Assembly (NCBI GenBank): GCA_903929765.1
Contig: CAIYVX010000082.1
Location: forward strand, 16,974 to 80,973
Source: an uncultured Planctomycetia bacterium
GTDB taxonomy: Bacteria; Planctomycetota; Phycisphaerae; FEN-1346; JAACEH01
Length of the DNA stretch: 64,000 nt
Reading direction: 5' to 3'
Each line of letters begins with the position of its first letter. The stretch's first letter is position 1. The notes under the pieces are model-generated. The model was not told the DNA's origin, searched no databases, and saw only the letters and a program-made list of their open reading frames with translations. Of the stretch, positions 37,728 to 58,215 are shown in pieces. The position numbers were made by a program, and so were the translations under genes.

Positions 37728-38264
37728 TCAGACCGGAAGAATATCCATCTCTAAACCTTCATGTCGTTCGTACCACGCGGCACTACTCCAGCGCCAGTCC
37801 GCGACCGACTCGACCAGGCCTCGCCGCACCGGATTATTGTGAATGTAATTGAGCTTCTCATAGAGTTCTTCCCGGCTTGTGATATTCCTATCATAACCAC
37901 CTCCTCCCAGCCAGAAGTGCGGCCTTCCCTGAGCGTCGGTGATCCGAGAGAGAATGGGGGCGTTCAACTCGCGCCACCGAGCGAGAACATCTTTCGAGAA
38001 CGGGCGCTTCAGGGCGTGAAGAATAGCCGTGACGGTAAAGTCAGGGAGGTCAGGTGTCAGAAGCAGGTGGAAATGCTCCGGCATAACGACCCAGGCGTAG
38101 AGGGCAAAGTCCGTCTGCCGCCGGACAAAAGACAACCGGTCTACGAAGGCGTCCTTGACGCGATCACTCTTGAACAGCGGCAACCGGCCGTAGCAGGAAC
38201 AAGTCAGGTAGCGAACATGGTTTGGCAACTCGTAGCGTTTAAGAGTTCGACGATTGTCGCTCAT
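37728..38264 (-). CDS. REP-associated tyrosine transposase (RAYT; IS200-like Y1/HUH family)
   Basis: ORF 37728..38393. The likely start is ATG 38264 (MSDNRRTLKRY...). HUH motif VMPEHFHLLL and Tyr region GGGYDRNITSREELYEKLNYIHNNPVRRGLV...WRWSS. Confidence 0.8.
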   Translation of the reverse strand: MSDNRRTLKRYELPNHVRYLTCSCYGRLPLFKSDRVKDAFVDRLSFVRRQTDFALYAWVVMPEHFHLLLTPDLPDFTVTAILHALKRPFSKDVLARWRELNAPILSRITDAQGRPHFWLGGGGYDRNITSREELYEKLNYIHNNPVRRGLVESVADWRWSSAAWYERHEGLEMDILPV

Positions 38265-38323
38265 GACGGGGCATCTCGACCAATCGGCACGAAGTTTATT
38301 CGGAAGATTTACTTGCGGTCCGA

Positions 38324-38370
38324 ACACACACTTTGCCCGGCATACTGCCGCCGGGACAAAGTGTGGCACC
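38324..38370 (-). repeat. REP-A hairpin repeat (right flank of RAYT, inverted)
   Basis: ACACACACTTTGcCCGGCatactgcCGCCGGGaCAAAGTGTGGCACC is the reverse-complement orientation of the other REP-A copies. Confidence 0.85.
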
Positions 38371-38403
38371 CTCGTTCCAAGGATCCCAAACAATCAGCTG
38401 AAA

Positions 38404-42245: not shown

Positions 42246-42273
42246 GATCCATTCCTCCGCGTGCCGCTTCTTT

Positions 42274-42318
42274 TTCACCCCTCTCCCTTGAGGGGAGAGG
42301 GTAGGGTGAGGGTGTTGC
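42274..42318 (+). repeat. Family C repeat, variant (45 nt)
   Basis: TTCACCCCTCTCCCTTGAGGGGAGAGGGTAGGGTGAGGGTGTTGC. Its exact reverse complement occurs at 48782-48826. Confidence 0.9.
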
Positions 42319-46174: not shown

Positions 46175-46233
46175 GGTTTCCCCGGACGCGACTCGCACGT
46201 CGTCTCTTTACCCCTCTCCCCATAAGGGAGGAC

Positions 46234-46271
46234 GGGTGGCATGGCGGCGTCGTTTGCCGCCATGTTTCGCC
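46234..46271 (+). repeat. Family D hairpin repeat
   Basis: GGGTGGCATGGCGGCgtcgtttGCCGCCATGTTTCGCC, near-identical to 58075-58113. Confidence 0.85.
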
Positions 46272-46300
46272 AGTGCCCGTTCTTCGGGTGCCGCCGTTTC

Positions 46301-46349
46301 TTCACCCCTCTCCCTCGGGAGAGGGTGGCCCGAAGGGCCGGGTGAGGGG
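46301..46349 (+). repeat. Family C repeat
   Basis: TTCACCCCTCTCCCtcGGGAGAGGGTGGCCCgaaGGGCCGGGTGAGGGG. The same element lies inside valS at 56210-56269. Confidence 0.85.
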
Positions 46350-46488
46350 TTAGCTCACCACCTCAAAAACTTCACCAGAACGCCATCATACGCGAGGACA
46401 TGCCCTGCCCGCGCCCTAAGCCCGACCAAAGTATTCCGAATCGCCCCATTTTTCAAGTAAAAACGCTGTGCGTACAGCCTTTGTTGTT

Positions 46489-46514
46489 CGTAGGGACAGG
46501 GCTCTGCCCTGTCC
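46489..46514 (+). repeat. Family F (GTAG-headed) REP
   Basis: CGTAGGGACAGGGCtcTGCCCTGTCC, identical to 63476-63500. Confidence 0.85.
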
Positions 46515-46544
46515 AGCCGTTTCTTTTGCCGTTGCCGCTTCACC

Positions 46545-46595
46545 GTGGCACGGGCTTCCCGCCCGTGAGTCGCAGGGGCATCTTGCCCCTGTGCC
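46545..46595 (+). repeat. REP-B double-hairpin repeat
   Basis: GTGGCACGGGCttcccGCCCGTGAGTCgCAGGGGCatcttGCCCCTGTGCC. About 75 nt including flanks is nearly identical to 61598-61675. Confidence 0.9.
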
Positions 46596-46615
46596 GTTGT
46601 TCTTGCCGTTGCCGC

Positions 46616-46648
46616 GTGTAGGGGCAACCCGTGGGTCGCCCGTTGCTG
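46616..46648 (+). repeat. Family F (GTAG-headed) REP, variant
   Basis: GTGTAGGGGCAACCCgtgGGTCGCCCGTTGCTG: a GTAGGGGC head followed by an imperfect hairpin. Confidence 0.6.
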
Positions 46649-46672
46649 TTGTTTGTTGCTTCTCTCTAGGCC

Positions 46673-46740
46673 CCCGCGCCATCGCCCTCCACTCCGCTCT
46701 CCCCCAGCCGCGAAGCGGCGAAAGTTTTTAGCCGGGCGGC
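46673..46740 (+). repeat. Family I 68-nt direct repeat (copy 1)
   Basis: CCCGCGCCATCGCCCTCCACTCCGCTCTCCCCCAGCCGCgaaGCGGCGAAAGTTTTTAGCCGGGCGGC has 5 mismatches over 68 nt against 46907-46974. Confidence 0.85.
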
Positions 46741-46906
46741 GTCAGCCCCCGGTCCCCGCCGCAAACACATTCTTCTTCTTTTTCTTCTTATTTCTCTTCT
46801 CAGCCGCAGCGCGGCGTCTGATAATAACCACGCGGCGCAAGCCCGTGGTTCCCAACGCGCCGACCCGGCTTTTTTCTTCTTCTTTTTCTTTTCCCAGCCC
46901 CCTCCC

Positions 46907-46974
46907 CCCGCGCCATCCCCCTCCCCTCCGCTCACCCCCAGCCGCGAAGCGGCGAAAGTTATTAGCCGGGTGGC
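46907..46974 (+). repeat. Family I 68-nt direct repeat (copy 2)
   Basis: CCCGCGCCATCCCCCTCCCCTCCGCTCACCCCCAGCCGCgaaGCGGCGAAAGTTATTAGCCGGGTGGC, 234 nt downstream of copy 1. Confidence 0.85.
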
Positions 46975-47167
46975 ATAAGCCAGCCACACCCTGTCCGCGC
47001 AGACATTCACCATCCGCTTTGGCTTGGTTATTAACACATGACAATGTTCATTTTGAGGAGGGCAGGTCGAAGTAAAGGCGGAGCCAGGGTTCAAGGTCTT
47101 CGAGCGCCACGGCCTTGCCTGTAGAGATGAGGAAGGACTTCATGTTCTCGGTGAATCCGTCGCCGTC

Positions 47168-48781: not shown

Positions 48782-48826
48782 GCAACACCCTCACCCTACC
48801 CTCTCCCCTCAAGGGAGAGGGGTGAA
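48782..48826 (-). repeat. Family C repeat, variant (inverted copy)
   Basis: GCAACACCCTCACCCTACCCTCTCCCCTCAAGGGAGAGGGGTGAA is the exact reverse complement of 42274-42318. Confidence 0.9.
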
Positions 48827-50150
48827 GAAGAAAAAGAAGAGGCAGGCCGTGACCGAACGAAAAATCCGCATCCAACTCGCCCTCGATTTCGCCGACCTGA
48901 GCCGCGCCCTGGCCGTGGCCCGCGCCGCCGTGCCCGAGGGCATCGACATCGTCGAAGCCGGCACGCCGCTCATCAAGAGCGAGGGTCTTAACGCCGTCCG
49001 CGAGTTGCGCCGCCTCTTTCCCGACCGGCCGATCCTGGCCGACCTCAAGACCGCCGACGCGGGCCGCATCGAAATGGAATGCGCCGCCAAGGCCGGGGCC
49101 ACGATGGCCATCTGCCTCGGCGCCGTCAGCGAATCGACCGTCCAGGAATCCATCGAAGCCGGCCGCAATTACGGCATCGAGGTCGGCGTCGACATGCTCG
49201 GCGTCGCCGATTACGTCGCCCTGGCCAAAAAATGCGAAGCCTGGGGCGCCGCCTTCCTCAACGTCCACCTCCCCATCGACGACCAGATGCGCGGCCTCCA
49301 ATCATTCGACCGCCTCCGCCAGATCGCCGAAGCCGTCTCGATTCCCGTCGCCGCCGCCGGGGGACTTAATTCCGAAAACGTCGTCGACGCCATCGCCGCC
49401 GGCGCTGCCATCGTCATCATCGGCGGCGCGATCACCAAGGCCGCCGACGTGGCCCAGGCCACGAGGGACATTCGCCGCGCGGTGGACACGCGGGCCAAAG
49501 TCGCCACCGAACTTTTCCGCCGCGCCGGCGAGACCGACATCCGCGAAGTCCTCGGCCGCGTCTCGGCCGCCAATTTAAGCGACGGGGCACACCGCCTGCC
49601 CTCGCTCGACGGACTCCGCCCGCTCTGGCCGGGCATCCGCTTTTGCGGCCCGGCCCTGACCGTCCGCACCGTCCCCGGCGATTGGTCGAAGCCCGTCCTG
49701 GCCATCGACCAGGCTGAGCCTGGCGACGTTCTCGTCATCGACGCCGGCGGCCGCCCGCCCGCCGTCTGGGGCGAACTGGCCACACAGAGCGCCATCGTCA
49801 ACAAGCTCTCCGGCGCCGTCATCGACGGGGCCGTCCGCGACACCATGGACATCCGCCGCCTCGAATTCCCGATCTTCTCCCGCTGCGTCTCGGCCAACGC
49901 CGGCGAACCCAAGGGCCTCGGCGAAATCGGCCAGCCGATTTTCCTTTCCGGCCAGCGAATCATGACCGGCGACTGGATTCTCGCCGACGACGACGGCGTC
50001 GTGGTTCTGCCCAAGGCCCGGGCGGTGGAAATGGCCAACCGCGCCCAGGACGTTCTGGAAAAAGAAAACCGCCTTCGCGACGAAATCACCAGCGGCCGCA
50101 GCTCGCTCGGCAAAGTCGCCGAACTTTTGCGCTGGGAGAAAAAATCTTAA
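48822..50150 (+). CDS. Fusion protein: 3-hexulose-6-phosphate synthase-like (OMPdecase/HUMPS fold) plus RraA-like domain
   Basis: The N-terminal half has IQLALDF...IVEAGTPLIK...LADLKTADAG (HPS/KGPDC pattern). The C-terminal half has ...PGDVLVIDAGG...AVWGELATQSA...GAVIDGAVRD (RraA/aldolase pattern). The start may be GTG 48849 instead of GTG 48822. Confidence 0.75.
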   Translation: MKKKKKRQAVTERKIRIQLALDFADLSRALAVARAAVPEGIDIVEAGTPLIKSEGLNAVRELRRLFPDRPILADLKTADAGRIEMECAAKAGATMAICLGAVSESTVQESIEAGRNYGIEVGVDMLGVADYVALAKKCEAWGAAFLNVHLPIDDQMRGLQSFDRLRQIAEAVSIPVAAAGGLNSENVVDAIAAGAAIVIIGGAITKAADVAQATRDIRRAVDTRAKVATELFRRAGETDIREVLGRVSAANLSDGAHRLPSLDGLRPLWPGIRFCGPALTVRTVPGDWSKPVLAIDQAEPGDVLVIDAGGRPPAVWGELATQSAIVNKLSGAVIDGAVRDTMDIRRLEFPIFSRCVSANAGEPKGLGEIGQPIFLSGQRIMTGDWILADDDGVVVLPKARAVEMANRAQDVLEKENRLRDEITSGRSSLGKVAELLRWEKKS

Positions 50151-53647: not shown

Positions 53648-54133
53648 ATGACCAAAACTTCTTTCACCATCCGCCCCGCCACTCCCGCCGACGCCGACGC
53701 CGTCGTCGCCATGTGGCAGATCATGGTGGACCAGCACCAGGCTTACGATCGCCTGCGCTGGCGCATGAAGCCCAACGCCCCCGCCCTTTGGCGCAAGTTC
53801 TTTCTGGAAGTCCTGGCCAAAAAAGATTCCTTCGCCCTGGTCGCCGTCAACGCCACTGGTCAACCCATTGGCTATCTCGTCGCCAACATCGCCGCTCCGC
53901 CGCCGATCGTGGCCATCCGCTCCCGCGGCGATATCGGCGATCTCTTTGTCCGAAAAGAATATCGCCGCCACGGTCTCGGCCGCCGACTAATGAACCACGC
54001 CGTCAAAATCATGAAGAGCCGCGGCGCCGAATATATCAGCCTCTACGTTGCCGCCTCGAACCGCAGCGCCGTCCGTTTCTACAAAAACCTCGGCCTGAAA
54101 CCGCTCGTGCTGCAGATGTGCAATAAGTTATAA
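53648..54133 (+). CDS. GNAT-family N-acetyltransferase
   Basis: 161 aa with acetyl-CoA motif A region VRKEYRRHGLGRRLMNHAV and ...SAVRFYKNLGLKP. Confidence 0.8.
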   Translation: MTKTSFTIRPATPADADAVVAMWQIMVDQHQAYDRLRWRMKPNAPALWRKFFLEVLAKKDSFALVAVNATGQPIGYLVANIAAPPPIVAIRSRGDIGDLFVRKEYRRHGLGRRLMNHAVKIMKSRGAEYISLYVAASNRSAVRFYKNLGLKPLVLQMCNKL

Positions 54134-54139
54134 TGAAAC

Positions 54140-54174
54140 GTGCCACGGCGGGTCTTGTCCCGCCGTGCGAATGC
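54140..54174 (+). repeat. Family E hairpin repeat (upstream of valS)
   Basis: GTGCCACGGCGGGtcttgtCCCGCCGTGCGAATGC. A second copy in the same orientation is at 58120-58153. Confidence 0.85.
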
Positions 54175-54207
54175 GGGCCGACGCTCGCTAAAAGGATAAT
54201 TGTCCCG

Positions 54208-57200
54208 ATGACCCAACCCGAAACCAACTCCACCAACCCCACCGACCTTCCCACCCAATACGACCCCAAGCTCTTCGAAAAGGAAGTTTACGCCTTCTGG
54301 GAATCTCATAACTATTTCCACGCCGACCCCGCGCGCGGCGGAAAACCCTACGCCATAGCCATCCCGCCCCCCAACGTCACTGCCGCCCTCCACCTCGGCC
54401 ACGCCCTCAACAACACCCTTCAGGACATCCTCGTCCGCTGGCGCCGCCAGCAGGGCTACAACACCCTCTGGATGCCCGGCACCGACCACGCCGGCATCGC
54501 CACCCAGGCCGTCATCGAAAAACGTCTCCTCGCCAACGAAGGCCTGCGCCGCAAAGACCTCGACCCCGACCCCGCCGTCGCCCGCACCAAGTTCGTCGCC
54601 CGCGTTCAGGCCTGGAAAGACGAGTACGAAGCCCGCATCCTCGGCCAGCTCAAAGCCATGGGCTGCTCCTGCGACTGGGACCGCACCCGCTTCACCATGG
54701 ACGAAACCTGCGCCGCCGCCGTCCGCGAAGCCTTTTTCCGCCTCTTCAAAGACGGCCTCATCTATCGCGGCAAACGCCTCGTCAACTGGGACCCCGCCAC
54801 CCAGACCGTCCTCGCCGACGACGAAGTCGAACACGAAACCGTCCAGGGAAATTTCTATTACCTCCGCTACCCGCTGGCTGAAGCCGTTGCTTTACCCAGT
54901 GACACGGGCATCTTGCCCGTGAGTCCCACGGGCGTCCCGCCCGTGGCCGCCGTTTCTTCTTCACCCAGTGGCACGGGCGTCCCGCCCGTGAGTGCCACGG
55001 GCATCTTGCCCGTGGAAGACTTGCCTGTAATCAAGCGTCAGGGTGCCAACCTGCCTCACTGGACTCAATCCGGCGCAACCTATGCCATCACGTTCCGGTT
55101 GGCCGATTCTCTCCCCGCCCAAGTCATTGAATCATGGAAGCATCACCGGGAAGAAATCGAACAAAGAGCCAACTCCCAAGGCCGCAAGATGACCTGGCAG
55201 GAGCGTAAGGAACTCCACCAACTGTACGAATCCCGCATCGACAGCATGCTGAACACCGGTCTTGGGGCGTGTTATCTCAACAATCCGGAAGTAGCCGAAA
55301 TCGTCCAGGACGCACTGAAACATTTCCACGGCGAGCGATACGAACTGATCGCCTGGTCACTCATGCCCAACCACATCCATGCCGTTCTCCGTCCTCTGGG
55401 AGAACACCATCTCGCGGACATCATCCACTCCTGGAAGTCCTTCACGGCTAAGCAAGCCAACAAAATTCTTGGACGAGAAGGACAGTTCTGGATGGAGGAA
55501 TACTACGACCACCTGATTCGCGACGAAGAGGATTTTGGCCATGCGGTAATGTACGCGATCAGCCATCCGGAGCGCGCCGGCCTGGCCGACTGGCCGTGGG
55601 TCGGACTGCAAAAAACGGCACAGGGGCAAGATGCCCCTGCGACTCACGGGCAAGATGCCCGTGCCACTGTTATAACACACATCACCGTCGCCACCACCCG
55701 ACCCGAAACCATGCTCGGCGACACCGCCGTCGCCATGAACCCCCGCGACCCCCGCGCCGCCGCTCTCGTCGGCCAGATGGTTCGCCTCCCCATCGTCGGC
55801 CGCCTCATCCCCATCATCGCCGACGAACACGTCGTCCTCCCCAACCCCGAAGGCGACGAAAAAGCCCGCTTCTCCACCGGCTTCCTCAAAGTCACACCCG
55901 CCCACGACCCCAACGACTGGGACATCGGCCAGCGCCACAAACTCCCGGCCATCAACGTCATGGCCCCCGACGGCTCAATCTCCGACAAGCACGGCTGGAC
56001 CGACTGGGACGCCGTCAAAAATCCTGATGTCGAAAAATTCATTGGCCTCGACCGCTTCATAGCCCGAAAGAAGATCGTCGACTGGTTCGGCGAAAACAAT
56101 CTTCTCGAAGAAGTCCGCCCCTACGCCCACGAAGTCGGCCACTCCTACCGCAGCCATGTCCCCATCGAACCCTACCTCTCCGACCAGTGGTTCATCGCCG
56201 TGAAAAAGCCGTTTCTTCTTCACCCCTCTCCCTCGGGAGAGGGTGGCCCTTCAGGGCCGGGTGAGGGGTTGAGGCCCTTGCCCGTTCCGACCGCGCCCGA
56301 ACTGATCCCCGGCACCGACGTGCCAGTTAATTCTTTAGCCGGCTTGGCCATCAAGCCGCTCCTCGACGGCAAACTCAAATTCGTCCCCGAGCGCTACGCC
56401 CGCAACTACCAGAACTGGCTCGAAAACCTTCGCGACTGGCCCATCTCCCGCCAACTCTGGTGGGGACACCGAATTCCAGTGTGGCAAGGAATCACTGAAT
56501 TTGGATCGAAGGTGTTTGAGGGCAAGGACACAGCAAAATCTCCATTCGGAATAGCCGGCGTAGAAGGAATACACATACAGCACAGAGATGAGGCTGGAAA
56601 ACTGGGACTGTATGCCTCGGTACCGCCCGGCCATCCAGACAAGGAAAAGAAACTGGAGGAGGCTGGCCTAACCCGCGACCCCGACGTCCTCGACACCTGG
56701 TTCTCTTCCGGCCTCTGGCCCATCTCAACCCTCGGTTGGCCGGAACAAACCGACGCGCTGAAATTCTATTACCCCACCTCCGTCCTCTGCACCGCCCGCG
56801 AAATCATCACCCTCTGGGTCAGCCGCATGGTCATGTTCGGCGAATATTTCCAGCACGACCTCCCCTTCCGCACCGTCTACATCCACGCCATGATTCAGGA
56901 CGGCGAAGGCCGCAAAATGTCCAAGAGCCTCGGCAACGGCATCGACCCCCTCGACATCATCGACTCTCACGGGGCCGACGCCATGCGCTTCACCATCGCC
57001 GCCATGACCACCGAAACTCAGGACGTCCGCATGCCGGTCGAAACCCTCACCCTCCGCGACGGCCGCACCGCCAACTCCAGCCCCAAGTTCGACCTCGGCC
57101 GCAACTTCTGCAACAAGCTCTGGAACGCCTCCCGCTTCGCCTTCATGAACCTCGCCGAACTTTCCCCCGAGCCGTTCGACCGCGCAAAAATGCTCCTCGA

Positions 57201-58053
57201 AGACCGCTGGATTCTCTCCCGCCTCACCACCACCGTCGAAGCCGCCACACAGGCCCTCGAAAAGTTCCAGTTCCACGACGCCACCGACGTGATCTACTCT
57301 TTCTTCTGGAACGATTTCTGCGACTGGTACCTCGAAATCACCAAGCCGCGCATGCGCGACGCCGCCACCAGAGCCGTCCCCCAACGCATCCTCGCCTACG
57401 CCCTCGACCGTCTCCTGCGGCTCCTCCACCCCTTCGTCCCGCACATTACCGAGCACCTCTGGACCCACTTCGCCCGCCTCGTCCCCGACCGCTCGCTCGA
57501 CTCTGCGGCCCCCGCCCCACCCGCCGAAGCCTGCATCATCGCCCTTTGGCCCGAGCCGGTCGCCGCTTTTTACGCGCCCCAGGCCGAAACCGATTTCGCC
57601 CTCGTCCAGGCCGTCATCCGCGCCATCCGCAACATCCGTTCGCGCATGAACATCGCCCCGCGCGTCCCGCTCCGCGCCGTCATCCGCTCGAGCGCCGCCG
57701 CCACCGCCCGCCTCTCCGCCGCCGCCGACACCATCCGCCACCTCGCCGCCCTCGAATCTCTTGAGGCCGACCCTGCCGCCGAAAAGCCCAAAGCCTCCGC
57801 CGCCGAAATCGTCGAAGGCCTGGAAGTCTTCGTCCCCCTCGCCGGCGTCATCGACCTCGCCACCGAGCGCGACCGCCTCGCCAAACTCTCGGCCGAGAAG
57901 GATAAGGCCCTCGACAGCGTCCGCAAAAAACTCTCGAACGAAAACTTCGTCGCCCGCGCCAAGCCCGAAATCGTCGCCAGCGAACGCGACCGCGCCGCCA
58001 AGCTCGAATCCGAACTCGCCGCCCTCACAGCCAACATGAAAGATTTGGAATAG
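54208..58053 (+). CDS. valS: Valyl-tRNA synthetase carrying in-frame mobile-element insertions
   Basis: ORF 54133..58053. ATG 54208 gives MTQPETN...PTQYDPKLFEKEVYAFWE. HIGH (PPNVTAALHLGHA), ATTRPETMLGDTAV, DWPISRQLWWGHRIP, KMSKS (RKMSKSLGN) and a coiled-coil C-terminus are all present in one frame. 1281 codons because of the inserts at 54899-55667 and about 56200-56300. Confidence 0.9.
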   Translation: MTQPETNSTNPTDLPTQYDPKLFEKEVYAFWESHNYFHADPARGGKPYAIAIPPPNVTAALHLGHALNNTLQDILVRWRRQQGYNTLWMPGTDHAGIATQAVIEKRLLANEGLRRKDLDPDPAVARTKFVARVQAWKDEYEARILGQLKAMGCSCDWDRTRFTMDETCAAAVREAFFRLFKDGLIYRGKRLVNWDPATQTVLADDEVEHETVQGNFYYLRYPLAEAVALPSDTGILPVSPTGVPPVAAVSSSPSGTGVPPVSATGILPVEDLPVIKRQGANLPHWTQSGATYAITFRLADSLPAQVIESWKHHREEIEQRANSQGRKMTWQERKELHQLYESRIDSMLNTGLGACYLNNPEVAEIVQDALKHFHGERYELIAWSLMPNHIHAVLRPLGEHHLADIIHSWKSFTAKQANKILGREGQFWMEEYYDHLIRDEEDFGHAVMYAISHPERAGLADWPWVGLQKTAQGQDAPATHGQDARATVITHITVATTRPETMLGDTAVAMNPRDPRAAALVGQMVRLPIVGRLIPIIADEHVVLPNPEGDEKARFSTGFLKVTPAHDPNDWDIGQRHKLPAINVMAPDGSISDKHGWTDWDAVKNPDVEKFIGLDRFIARKKIVDWFGENNLLEEVRPYAHEVGHSYRSHVPIEPYLSDQWFIAVKKPFLLHPSPSGEGGPSGPGEGLRPLPVPTAPELIPGTDVPVNSLAGLAIKPLLDGKLKFVPERYARNYQNWLENLRDWPISRQLWWGHRIPVWQGITEFGSKVFEGKDTAKSPFGIAGVEGIHIQHRDEAGKLGLYASVPPGHPDKEKKLEEAGLTRDPDVLDTWFSSGLWPISTLGWPEQTDALKFYYPTSVLCTAREIITLWVSRMVMFGEYFQHDLPFRTVYIHAMIQDGEGRKMSKSLGNGIDPLDIIDSHGADAMRFTIAAMTTETQDVRMPVETLTLRDGRTANSSPKFDLGRNFCNKLWNASRFAFMNLAELSPEPFDRAKMLLEDRWILSRLTTTVEAATQALEKFQFHDATDVIYSFFWNDFCDWYLEITKPRMRDAATRAVPQRILAYALDRLLRLLHPFVPHITEHLWTHFARLVPDRSLDSAAPAPPAEACIIALWPEPVAAFYAPQAETDFALVQAVIRAIRNIRSRMNIAPRVPLRAVIRSSAAATARLSAAADTIRHLAALESLEADPAAEKPKASAAEIVEGLEVFVPLAGVIDLATERDRLAKLSAEKDKALDSVRKKLSNENFVARAKPEIVASERDRAAKLESELAALTANMKDLE
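54899..54946 (+). repeat. REP-B double-hairpin repeat (inside valS, left copy 1)
   Basis: GTGACACGGGCatcttGCCCGTGAGTCcCACGGGCgtcccGCCCGTGG, translated in the valS frame as SDTGILPVSPTGVPPV. Confidence 0.85.
54968..55014 (+). repeat. REP-B double-hairpin repeat (inside valS, left copy 2)
   Basis: GTGGCACGGGCgtcccGCCCGTGAGTGcCACGGGCatcttGCCCGTG, translated as SGTGVPPVSATGILPV. Confidence 0.85.
55617..55667 (-). repeat. REP-B double-hairpin repeat (inside valS, right copy, inverted)
   Basis: GGCACAGGGGCaagatGCCCCTGcGACTCACGGGCaagatGCCCGTGCCAC is the reverse complement of the REP-B consensus, translated as TAQGQDAPATHGQDARAT. Confidence 0.85.
56210..56269 (+). repeat. Family C repeat with shared leader, inside valS
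   Basis: GCCGTTTCTTCTTCACCCCTCTCCCtcGGGAGAGGGTGGCCCttcaGGGCCGGGTGAGGGG, the same element as the intergenic copy at 46301-46349. It is read in frame as PFLLHPSPSGEGGPSGPGEG. Confidence 0.85.
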
Positions 58054-58074: not shown

Positions 58075-58113
58075 GGGTGGCATGGCGGCCGTCGTTTGCC
58101 GCCATGTTTCGCC
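58075..58113 (+). repeat. Family D hairpin repeat
   Basis: GGGTGGCATGGCGGCcgtcgtttGCCGCCATGTTTCGCC, 22 nt after the valS stop. Lies between convergent valS and the response regulator gene, so it may act as a terminator. Confidence 0.85.
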
Positions 58114-58119
58114 CCGGGT

Positions 58120-58153
58120 GTGCCACGGCGGGCTTGCCCCGCCGTGCGAATGC
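58120..58153 (+). repeat. Family E hairpin repeat (downstream of valS)
   Basis: GTGCCACGGCGGGcttgcCCCGCCGTGCGAATGC, in the same orientation as 54140-54174. Confidence 0.85.
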
Positions 58154-58215
58154 CCGCCAACCCCGGTTGCTCTAAAACGTGTTTTGATTCTTCTTTTTCT
58201 CTTTCCGCAACTCCC

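Follow-up and report, generated by a model that had tools for sequence, protein, structure and literature searches.

Palindromic repeats that lie between genes and also in frame inside genes, including essential ones, were reportedly described by Ogata et al. in 2000 as Rickettsia palindromic elements (RPEs). A comparable case is found in a 64,000-nucleotide stretch of DNA from an uncultured Planctomycetia bacterium (contig CAIYVX010000082.1; the whole stretch is hereafter called the window), where a 60-nt hairpin repeat of the BoxC/PIT/TM type is inserted in frame in valS, the gene for valyl-tRNA synthetase (ValRS). Like RPEs, this palindromic element occurs both between genes and in frame and adds a peptide without destroying the protein. 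However, RPEs are approximately 100–150 bp long, AT-rich, unrelated in sequence and confined to Rickettsia, whereas the present element comprises 60 nt, is G/C-rich and is found across phyla. Repetitive extragenic palindromes (REPs) tagged with GTAG or CGTC offer another precedent: their intragenic copies are inserted in frame, typically encode 20–30 residues, occur in housekeeping genes including those of tRNA synthetases, and are regarded as neutral insertions into loops or linkers (Di Nocera et al. 2013, PMC3733652). The valS insert is likewise a short hairpin repeat in frame in a tRNA synthetase gene, but it possesses neither tag and forms no inverted dimers here, whereas neighbouring repeats designated D1 (GTGG-tagged double hairpins) fit this class. 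Membership of the tagged REPs was rejected for TM, as the copies in the window lack the tag, though CGTC precedes many copies in Planctomycetota. In common with RPEs and intragenic REPs, the insert has copies outside genes in the same genome, is absent from orthologs with colinear flanks, and is a stop-free multiple of three. In-frame palindromic insertions of these kinds are already known; unusual here are the hairpin-loop variant of TM and its location in a coding sequence.

The intrastrand-triplex motif TM, previously named BoxC and PIT element, has the form CCCTCTCCC-loop-GGGAGAGGG-loop-GGGTGAGGG (Holder et al. 2015, NAR 43:10126, PMC4666352, where the earlier work of Hoyne/Maher 2000 is cited). 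In vitro, isolated strands of it fold into a triplex of high stability and can stop DNA polymerase, and the motif has been tied to local genomic instability; no promoter, terminator or in-vivo effect was detected for the motifs of Escherichia coli (PMC4666352). The preliminary description had named the valS repeat "family C"; judged by its sequence, it is not a local family but a hairpin-loop variant of this G/C-rich, cross-phylum motif. With the E. coli motif (TMECO) it shares the three 9-nt blocks, the hairpin between blocks 1 and 2, a possible purine third strand, and multi-copy occurrence in both orientations. It differs in loop 2, which measures 15 nt in valS and 14 nt in the intergenic sister copy compared with 3 nt in E. 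coli. Moreover, copies in this genome carry a T-rich leader as a pairing partner for block 3, which predicts a three-way junction rather than a triplex, and the valS copy lies inside a translated coding sequence whereas E. coli copies are reported always to be intergenic. The third relevant precedent is provided by the systems formed by REPINs and REP-associated tyrosine transposases (RAYTs) (Nunvar 2010; Bertels & Rainey 2011, PMC3116915; TnpA-REP structure 4ER8). The same valS gene also holds a RAYT-like HUH/Y1 domain between inverted REP hairpins, in the canonical REP-RAYT-REP order, but the entire cassette is here translated in frame within the host protein. The TM insert, for its part, shows no association with the RAYT and has no GTAG or GTGG tag, unlike D1 (GTGGCACGGGC…).

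In the public record, valS (valine--tRNA ligase) is called at 54208–58053 on the forward strand with 1281 aa, 100% identical to protein P0001. The maximal open reading frame (ORF) extends from 54133 to 58053 (+), is intact over 1306 aa, and matches the Pfam families tRNA-synt_1 (E=2.8e-121), Anticodon_1 and Val_tRNA-synt_C. The public-record start corresponds to Met26 of the 1306-aa ORF, and translation probably does not begin at the ATG further upstream. Within this ORF the triple-block repeat with its T-rich leader occupies 56212–56271 (+), i.e., 60 nt or 20 codons, read in the valS frame as the Pro/Ser/Gly-rich peptide FLLHPSPSGEGGPSGPGEGL (aa 694–713 of the 1306-aa ORF; predicted tryptic peptide PFLLHPSPSGEGGPSGPGEGLR). 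It sits between SDQWFIAVKKP and LIPGTDVPVNSLAGLAIKPLLDGKLKFVPERY, which bears out the earlier statement of a frame-preserving insertion between SDQWF and the LA… block. The length is a multiple of three and the host frame (+0) contains no stop; since three of the six frames of this copy are free of stop codons, an in-frame survivor is not improbable. The identity to the intergenic repeat, also claimed previously, holds: the 64 kb contain the exact 29-mer CACCCCTCTCCCTCGGGAGAGGGTGGCCC at two positions only, 46303 and 56221, and the two copies (the intergenic one at 46294–46352) also have an exact 17-mer in common, with 0.00 occurrences of the 29-mer expected in shuffles. Alignment of both copies extends the common tract from GCCG…TTTCTTCAC (GCCG-TTTCTTC…CAC) through GGGCCGGGTGAGGGGTT. 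They differ solely in the small hairpin, whose loop reads TTCA in valS and GAA in the spacer, and by a CTT within the T-rich leader. Furthermore, C occupies the third codon position at a frequency of 0.7–0.87 in the valS core compared with 0.23–0.30 across codons 691–720, an independent sign that the insert is of foreign origin.

The size of the insertion was delimited against two sets of orthologs. The database set consisted of 120 aligned ValRS homologs, 52–68% identical over their full length and mostly from metagenome-assembled genomes (MAGs) of Sedimentisphaerales and other Phycisphaerae, including Anaerobaca lacustris; a metagenome scan supplied 78 further orthologous loci readable at the DQWF loop. 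The PSPSGEGG… peptide was present in 0 of these 120 + 78 sequences. In the orthologs, the modal stretch from DQW[YF] to NSLAGL comprises 36 aa (DQWYIAVKKPIEHLAEKFGEGLIEGTDVPVNSLAGL; clade consensus of the loop, KKPIEHLAEKFGEGLIEGTDVPVNS), compared with 55 aa in the window. The closest core relative, P0081 (73% identity, alignment A2), has KKQIPSLPDAGLIAGTDVPVNS at the loop, and its DNA flanks align with the window on both sides, the window being 66 nt longer. Thermus thermophilus ValRS (1GAX) passes directly from …QWWLRMR364 to L366AEEVLKGL, residues 364–366 being contiguous, and the window protein is about 43 residues longer at this junction. The repeat had been credited with about 40 residues, a figure that is correct for the excess over a canonical ValRS but has to be halved for the repeat itself: it contributes 20, and about 23 others (…LIPGTDVPVNS) are ancestral to the clade according to the ortholog alignment. 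Immediately downstream, the candidate native-loop segment RPLPVPTAPE (56272–56301, +) corresponds to IPSLPDAG in P0081 and to EHLAEKFGEG in most orthologs; judging from this comparison, it probably represents the native loop in diverged form rather than a portion of the repeat.

The anatomy of the valS copy follows that of TM closely. An 18-nt leader, GCCGTTTCTTCTTCACCC (56208–56225, +), contains CTTCACCC, which can pair with block 3. Block 1, the pyrimidine strand CCCTCTCCC (56224–56232, +), was located by exact pattern search and is the same 9-mer as in TMECO (PMC4666352 Table 1), and block 2, the purine strand GGGAGAGGG (56235–56243, +), forms a Watson-Crick hairpin with it. Loop 2 (56244–56258, +) is a 15-nt mini-hairpin, T-GGCCC-TTCA-GGGCC, in place of 3 nt in E. 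coli. Block 3, GGGTGAGGG (56259–56267, +), is identical to the third block of TMECO; as a potential third strand running antiparallel to block 2, it would be compatible, on inspection, with triads of the types G·G:C, A·A:T and T·A:T. The predicted single-strand fold of 71 nt has −38 kcal/mol (z = −2.3) and adopts a three-way junction through pairing of the leader with block 3; the nearest-neighbour calculation covers Watson-Crick and wobble pairs only. The exact leader occurs twice in the window, both times within valS and read in different frames, at 54949–54966 before a D1 repeat and at 56208–56225 before TM. Related leaders stand before the other TM copies and before hairpins at 42263, 48820 (−) and 53414; the chance expectation is 0.07. 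The GCCG at the 5' junction belongs to the native Lys-Pro codon context and also starts the repeat unit in other copies, so it may represent a 5' microhomology or a target site.

Four TM copies are present in the 64 kb, two long and two short, in both orientations, and three of the four are intergenic. Both long copies have all three 9-nt blocks, with loop 2 replaced by T-GGCCC-(GAA|TTCA)-GGGCC; the sister of the valS copy (46294–46352, +; loop 2 of 14 nt) lies in a 1-kb repeat-filled spacer. The short copies, one intergenic at 42265–42316 (+) with TA as loop 2 and the other inverted just upstream of a gene start at 48783–48834 (−), are both 34/35 identical to E. coli K-12 TMECO no. 2. Because the published ITxF search was limited to loops of 1–6 nt, the hairpin-loop variant would escape its listing; the short copies (motif at 42279 and 48799) fall within this limit and the valS copy, with a loop 2 of 15 nt, falls outside it. 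As for the spacer itself (46200–47160, about 1 kb), it contains at least six hairpin repeat families separated by T-rich linkers of the GCCGTT type, among them GTAG-tagged REPs (GTAGGGACAGGGCTCTGCCCTGTCC, GTAGGGGCAACCCGTGGGTCGCCC), a D1 unit, TM and a pair of 77-nt repeats. Rfam contains no family that covers the TM element, yielding sub-threshold noise only. Separately, the family Acido-Lenti-1 (RF01687) matches the spacer at 46706–46752 (−) with 41.8 bits (gathering score 37) and at 46940–46969 (−) with 27.8 bits, both within the two copies of the 77-nt repeat, D9.

The distribution of the long core was surveyed in one genome per GTDB species with the pattern CCCTCTCCC-N3-6-GGGAGAGGGTGGCCC-N3-5-GGGCC. 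Exact matches were obtained in at least 119 genome stretches across many phyla, with hosts according to record titles including Planctomycetes (Paludisphaera, Phycisphaeraceae), Alphaproteobacteria (Azospirillum, Caulobacter, Maricaulis, Roseomonas), Beta- and Gammaproteobacteria, Myxococcaceae, Dehalococcoidia, Nitrospirae, Acidobacteria, Gemmatimonadaceae and one Lachnospiraceae MAG. Among the matches listed, a third block follows the core directly in 107 of 122 copies, though it was outside the search pattern, in the forms GGGTGAGGG (70), GGGAGAGGG (19) and GGTGAGGGG (18); in the same matches the 5' flanks are not conserved. Between E. coli and Planctomycetota there is essentially no change in the three 9-nt blocks, and loops and flanks vary (L002–L120). 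Many copies in Planctomycetota have (C)GTC before the motif and TCGTCG after it.

Among the matches listed, the hairpin-loop variant lies in frame in at least six copies of other genomes, in phyla beyond Planctomycetota (L003 (6213–7214, −), L007, L032, L035, L052 and L088). Intragenic copies were kept only where Pfam or PDB matches confirmed them, because a heuristic based on stop-free spans gave many spurious long ORFs in G+C-rich genomes. The host proteins with a Pfam-confirmed domain are two paralogous adenylate cyclases of a Dehalococcoidia MAG, a DUF7948/SBBP protein of an Acidobacteria MAG, HsdM of Rudaea, HrpA of Uliginosibacterium, and BshC; a further copy lies in an alphaproteobacterial IleRS, within its editing domain. 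Both orientations and several reading frames are represented among these copies, with peptides such as PSPSGEGGPSGPGEG, PSPRGRGWPGGPGEG, SPLPAGEGGPKGRVRV, LTRPSGPPSPSGGEG and PTPGPSGHPLPQGERG. Because frames and orientations vary in this way, no particular peptide appears to be under selection among the in-frame copies.

The ValRS loop, in turn, is a recurrent site of insertion. Extra sequence occurs at this very position in 31 of the 120 database orthologs and in 13 of the 78 metagenome loci, or about 15–25% of orthologs, and many of these inserts prove, when read as DNA, to be hairpin repeats of unrelated sequence, including D1-like GTGGCACGGGC… units. In L153 and L155, for instance, the insert is GTGGCACGGGCTTCCAGCCCGTGAAGACACGGCCAAGATGGCCGTGCCAC, read as WHGLPAREDTAKMAVP, and in L199 it is GCGGGCGTCCCGCCCGC…; in L148 and L199 the repeat found in the loop is also present elsewhere on the same contig.

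These observations are best accounted for by regarding the insert as a passenger tolerated in a permissive loop of ValRS, and this is considered likely. Tolerance is favoured because the same loop is a recurrent insertion site and the same TM variant occurs in frame in unrelated proteins, read in varied frames. Purifying filtering, tolerance and exaptation of the peptide had been put forward as alternatives, and it is the first two that gain ground: unrelated inserts share the loop, and the same element sits in frame in unrelated proteins. In 1GAX the secondary-structure elements to either side of the insert are contiguous, and the loop concerned varies in length. According to the proposed course of events, a TM copy would have been inserted into this clade-specific, length-variable loop, which comes just after the …DQWF… strand, where the chain returns from the CP1 editing domain, and precedes the LAGLAIKPLL helix. 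The 60-nt tract would then be translated as a flexible 20-residue peptide, likely disordered and harmless, and presumably neutral at the protein level. Selection would purge insertions elsewhere in the essential valS, and in-frame ones in permissive loops would persist. As candidate ways of arrival, single-strand transposition by a Y1/RAYT enzyme with GCCG as the target site may be considered, as may template switching or gene conversion at hairpins, aided by GCCG as 5' microhomology.

Several points weigh against this view of the insert as a tolerated passenger. In E. coli K-12, TM motifs are reported always to be intergenic and to have no link to mobile elements (PMC4666352). In an AlphaFold2 model (aa 26–1200, 60-sequence alignment) the insert has a pLDDT of 25–33 and no secondary structure, but the model is poor overall, with a mean pLDDT of 65, so that the suggested disordered surface loop is weakly supported by it. 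As the TM blocks hardly differ between phyla, the match with the intergenic copy carries no information on recency, and a recent insertion, proposed from the identity to the spacer copy, was rejected for this reason. Moreover, the window is limited to 64 kb, which makes a second valS copy elsewhere possible. The collections searched hold no valS relative above about 73% identity, the best metagenome matches reaching 65–73%, and the insertion is thus neither datable nor checkable in an independent assembly.

The D1 repeats inside valS belong to an embedded cassette. A RAYT-like Y1 (HUH) transposase domain is encoded in frame at 55024–55611 (+; aa 298–493; PF01797), at the CP1/editing insertion point of ValRS, and its best relative in the PDB is the E. 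coli RAYT, TnpA-REP (4ER8, E=7e-6). At the N-terminal junction it is preceded by two direct, GTGG-tagged D1 double-hairpin REP units (54897–55014, +), translated as GILPV/GVPPV, and at the C-terminal junction it is followed by one inverted D1 double-hairpin unit (55621–55664, −), translated as GQDAPATHGQDARAT. Of 120 orthologs, 118 carry the domain at the same site, with YPL… before it and …TVATTRPETMLGD after it. Conservation among 60 orthologs is at least 90% for the HUH histidines and for the tyrosine motif Y…NP, and the RAYT is apparently intact. The preliminary view that two independent repeat families had entered one ORF is thus correct as far as the sequence goes, but the first family, that of the D1 REPs, makes up the junctions of a RAYT-like domain that is old and conserved, and is not an independent simple insertion. 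P0081 is without the cassette; in P0100 the canonical site is empty and the entire REP-RAYT-REP cassette stands after KMSKS, in the anticodon-binding region, which suggests that the RAYT module was moved or captured more than once. The module has a third-position G+C content (GC3) of 0.55–0.75, compared with 0.83–1.0 in the valS core. No TM copy adjoins the embedded domain or the stand-alone RAYT gene of the window (37728–38393); the two short copies are 6.5 kb apart. None of these facts changes the identity of the TM insert.

Embedding of this kind extends beyond ValRS. An exhaustive HMMER search with the RAYT domain returned 9881 proteins (E≤1e-3), and in 41 of the best 150 clusters (P0122–P0271) the domain is embedded with at least 100 residues on both sides. 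The hosts identified by Pfam, in which the host domain is often split by the cassette, include UvrA, AlaRS, a MurC-Ddl fusion, Type ISP restriction enzymes, N6 methylases, a DinG-like helicase and MetH. In AlaRS, three clusters have one common site, VL(T/S)MG|…|FSxELCGGTH, and the junctions of the other embedded cassettes are again inverted hairpin-repeat peptides. In the literature searched, no description of a ValRS-RAYT fusion or of in-frame RAYT cassettes was found; in a survey of TnpA-Y1, 'unexpectedly long proteins' were discarded (Quentin et al. 2018, PMC6006769). A wider and rather unlikely possibility is that the TM insert is one footprint of an undescribed gene-embedded REP/RAYT system with a catalytically intact RAYT in this order of Planctomycetota, in which essential genes serve as a safe harbour and hairpins are seeded in cis. 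Such a system could be an intein-like harbour without splicing, its repeats could have been shaped by evolution to lack stops and to be read as linker-like peptides, and its enzyme could seed hairpin repeats preferentially in cis, with the valS loops as hot spots. Splicing of the valS inserts in the manner of inteins was itself rejected, as no intein motifs are visible at the junctions on sequence inspection.

A related proposal, compatible with a tolerated passenger, is that valS is a mutational hot spot in which the embedded RAYT-like transposase acts preferentially in cis and seeds hairpin repeats, TM included, more often than in other genes. In the embedded domain, conservation of the catalytic HUH and Y…NP motifs is at least 90%, and TnpA-REP is the best PDB match; REP-derived peptides occur at several positions of the valS core across orthologs (515–520, 638–653, 786 and 993–997), and the loop inserts of L148 and L199 match the RAYT-junction repeats of the same gene. 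Within the window, valS is the only gene with internal copies of the repeat families surveyed, and both copies of the exact leader GCCGTTTCTTCTTCACCC are likewise confined to it. TM itself, however, has no GTAG or GTGG tag, does not flank the RAYT and is not known to be moved by any enzyme, and its in-frame copies also occur in phyla where no embedded RAYT was seen. Action in cis is regarded as conceivable but doubtful for hairpin repeats in general, and as less probable still for TM specifically. Exaptation would mean that the insert has been kept as a flexible linker between the editing and catalytic parts, or as a stable structure of hairpins or a triplex in mRNA or DNA that pauses translation or replication within valS. 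The stability of the predicted fold (−38 kcal/mol for 71 nt, z = −2.3), the otherwise intact valS ORF, and the ability of TM oligonucleotides to form triplexes and to block DNA polymerase in vitro (PMC4666352) would suit such a role; yet the insert is found in no ortholog, unrelated sequences take its place in other lineages, the element is read elsewhere in several frames and orientations, and no promoter, terminator or in-vivo effect was found in E. coli (PMC4666352). With no conservation found and no single peptide recurring, exaptation, which had been entertained for the peptide, is considered improbable.

A repeat-induced chimera, by which a repeat copy was placed into valS during assembly of the metagenomic contig, has also to be weighed, given that the genome is crowded with near-identical short repeats and that the protein in databases comes from one contig only. 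The gene is nevertheless colinear in the same frame on both sides of an insert of exactly 20 codons, whose loop and leader differ from those of the locus at 46294–46352, so that it is not a copy-paste of the latter; analogous inserts are moreover present in many independent assemblies. An artefact of this sort is accordingly rated very improbable. Least credible of all, with a practically negligible chance, is that the sequence is ancestral to ValRS and resembles the repeat by accident. Part of the extra loop (LIPGTDVPVNS) is truly ancestral, but the exact 29-mer and 17-mer held in common with the intergenic element, for which 0 are expected, stand against this reading of the repeat, as does the fact that its peptide is missing from all of about 200 orthologs, the alignment that had been called for as a check. 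The ancestral reading was rejected on the 29-mer statistics, the ortholog alignments and the DNA flanks of P0081.

The valS copy shows that BoxC/PIT/TM, usually described as strictly intergenic, can reside in the ORF of an essential gene, where it would be translated. The hairpin-loop variant, which is outside the published triplex search criteria, is spread over many phyla and recurs in frame, thereby supplying a natural set of insertion-tolerant sites and a way to ask if and how TM motifs move. For annotation, strings such as PSPxGEGGPxGPGEG, HGQDARAT and GILPV in conserved proteins should be taken as translated repeats and not as lineage-specific functional motifs. The REP-RAYT-REP cassettes embedded in housekeeping proteins, although a side observation, are more novel than the TM finding itself and, if such an embedded lifestyle is true, would bear on the long vertical persistence of single-copy RAYTs and their repeats.

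Some minor features of the surroundings may be added. The stand-alone RAYT-type gene at 37728–38393 (−; …VVMPEHFHLLL…YIHNNPVRRGL…) shares about 28% identity with the domain inside ValRS, so at least two RAYT lineages exist within the 64 kb. Within valS, the segment 56428–56607 (…QGITEFGSKVFEGKDTAKSPFGIAGVEGIHIQHRDEAGKLGLYASV…) has a GC3 of 0.40–0.47 compared with 0.83–1.0 in the core and is not a repeat of the window; it belongs to the region following WGHRIPVW, which is variable in length and sequence in nearly all orthologs. Finally, the maximal valS ORF opens with 25 codons (54133–54207; …AGLVPPCECGP…) that run through an upstream repeat, GG[GT]CTTG[CT]CCCGCCGTGCGAATG, and the same repeat is found again just 3' of the gene at 58075–58160.

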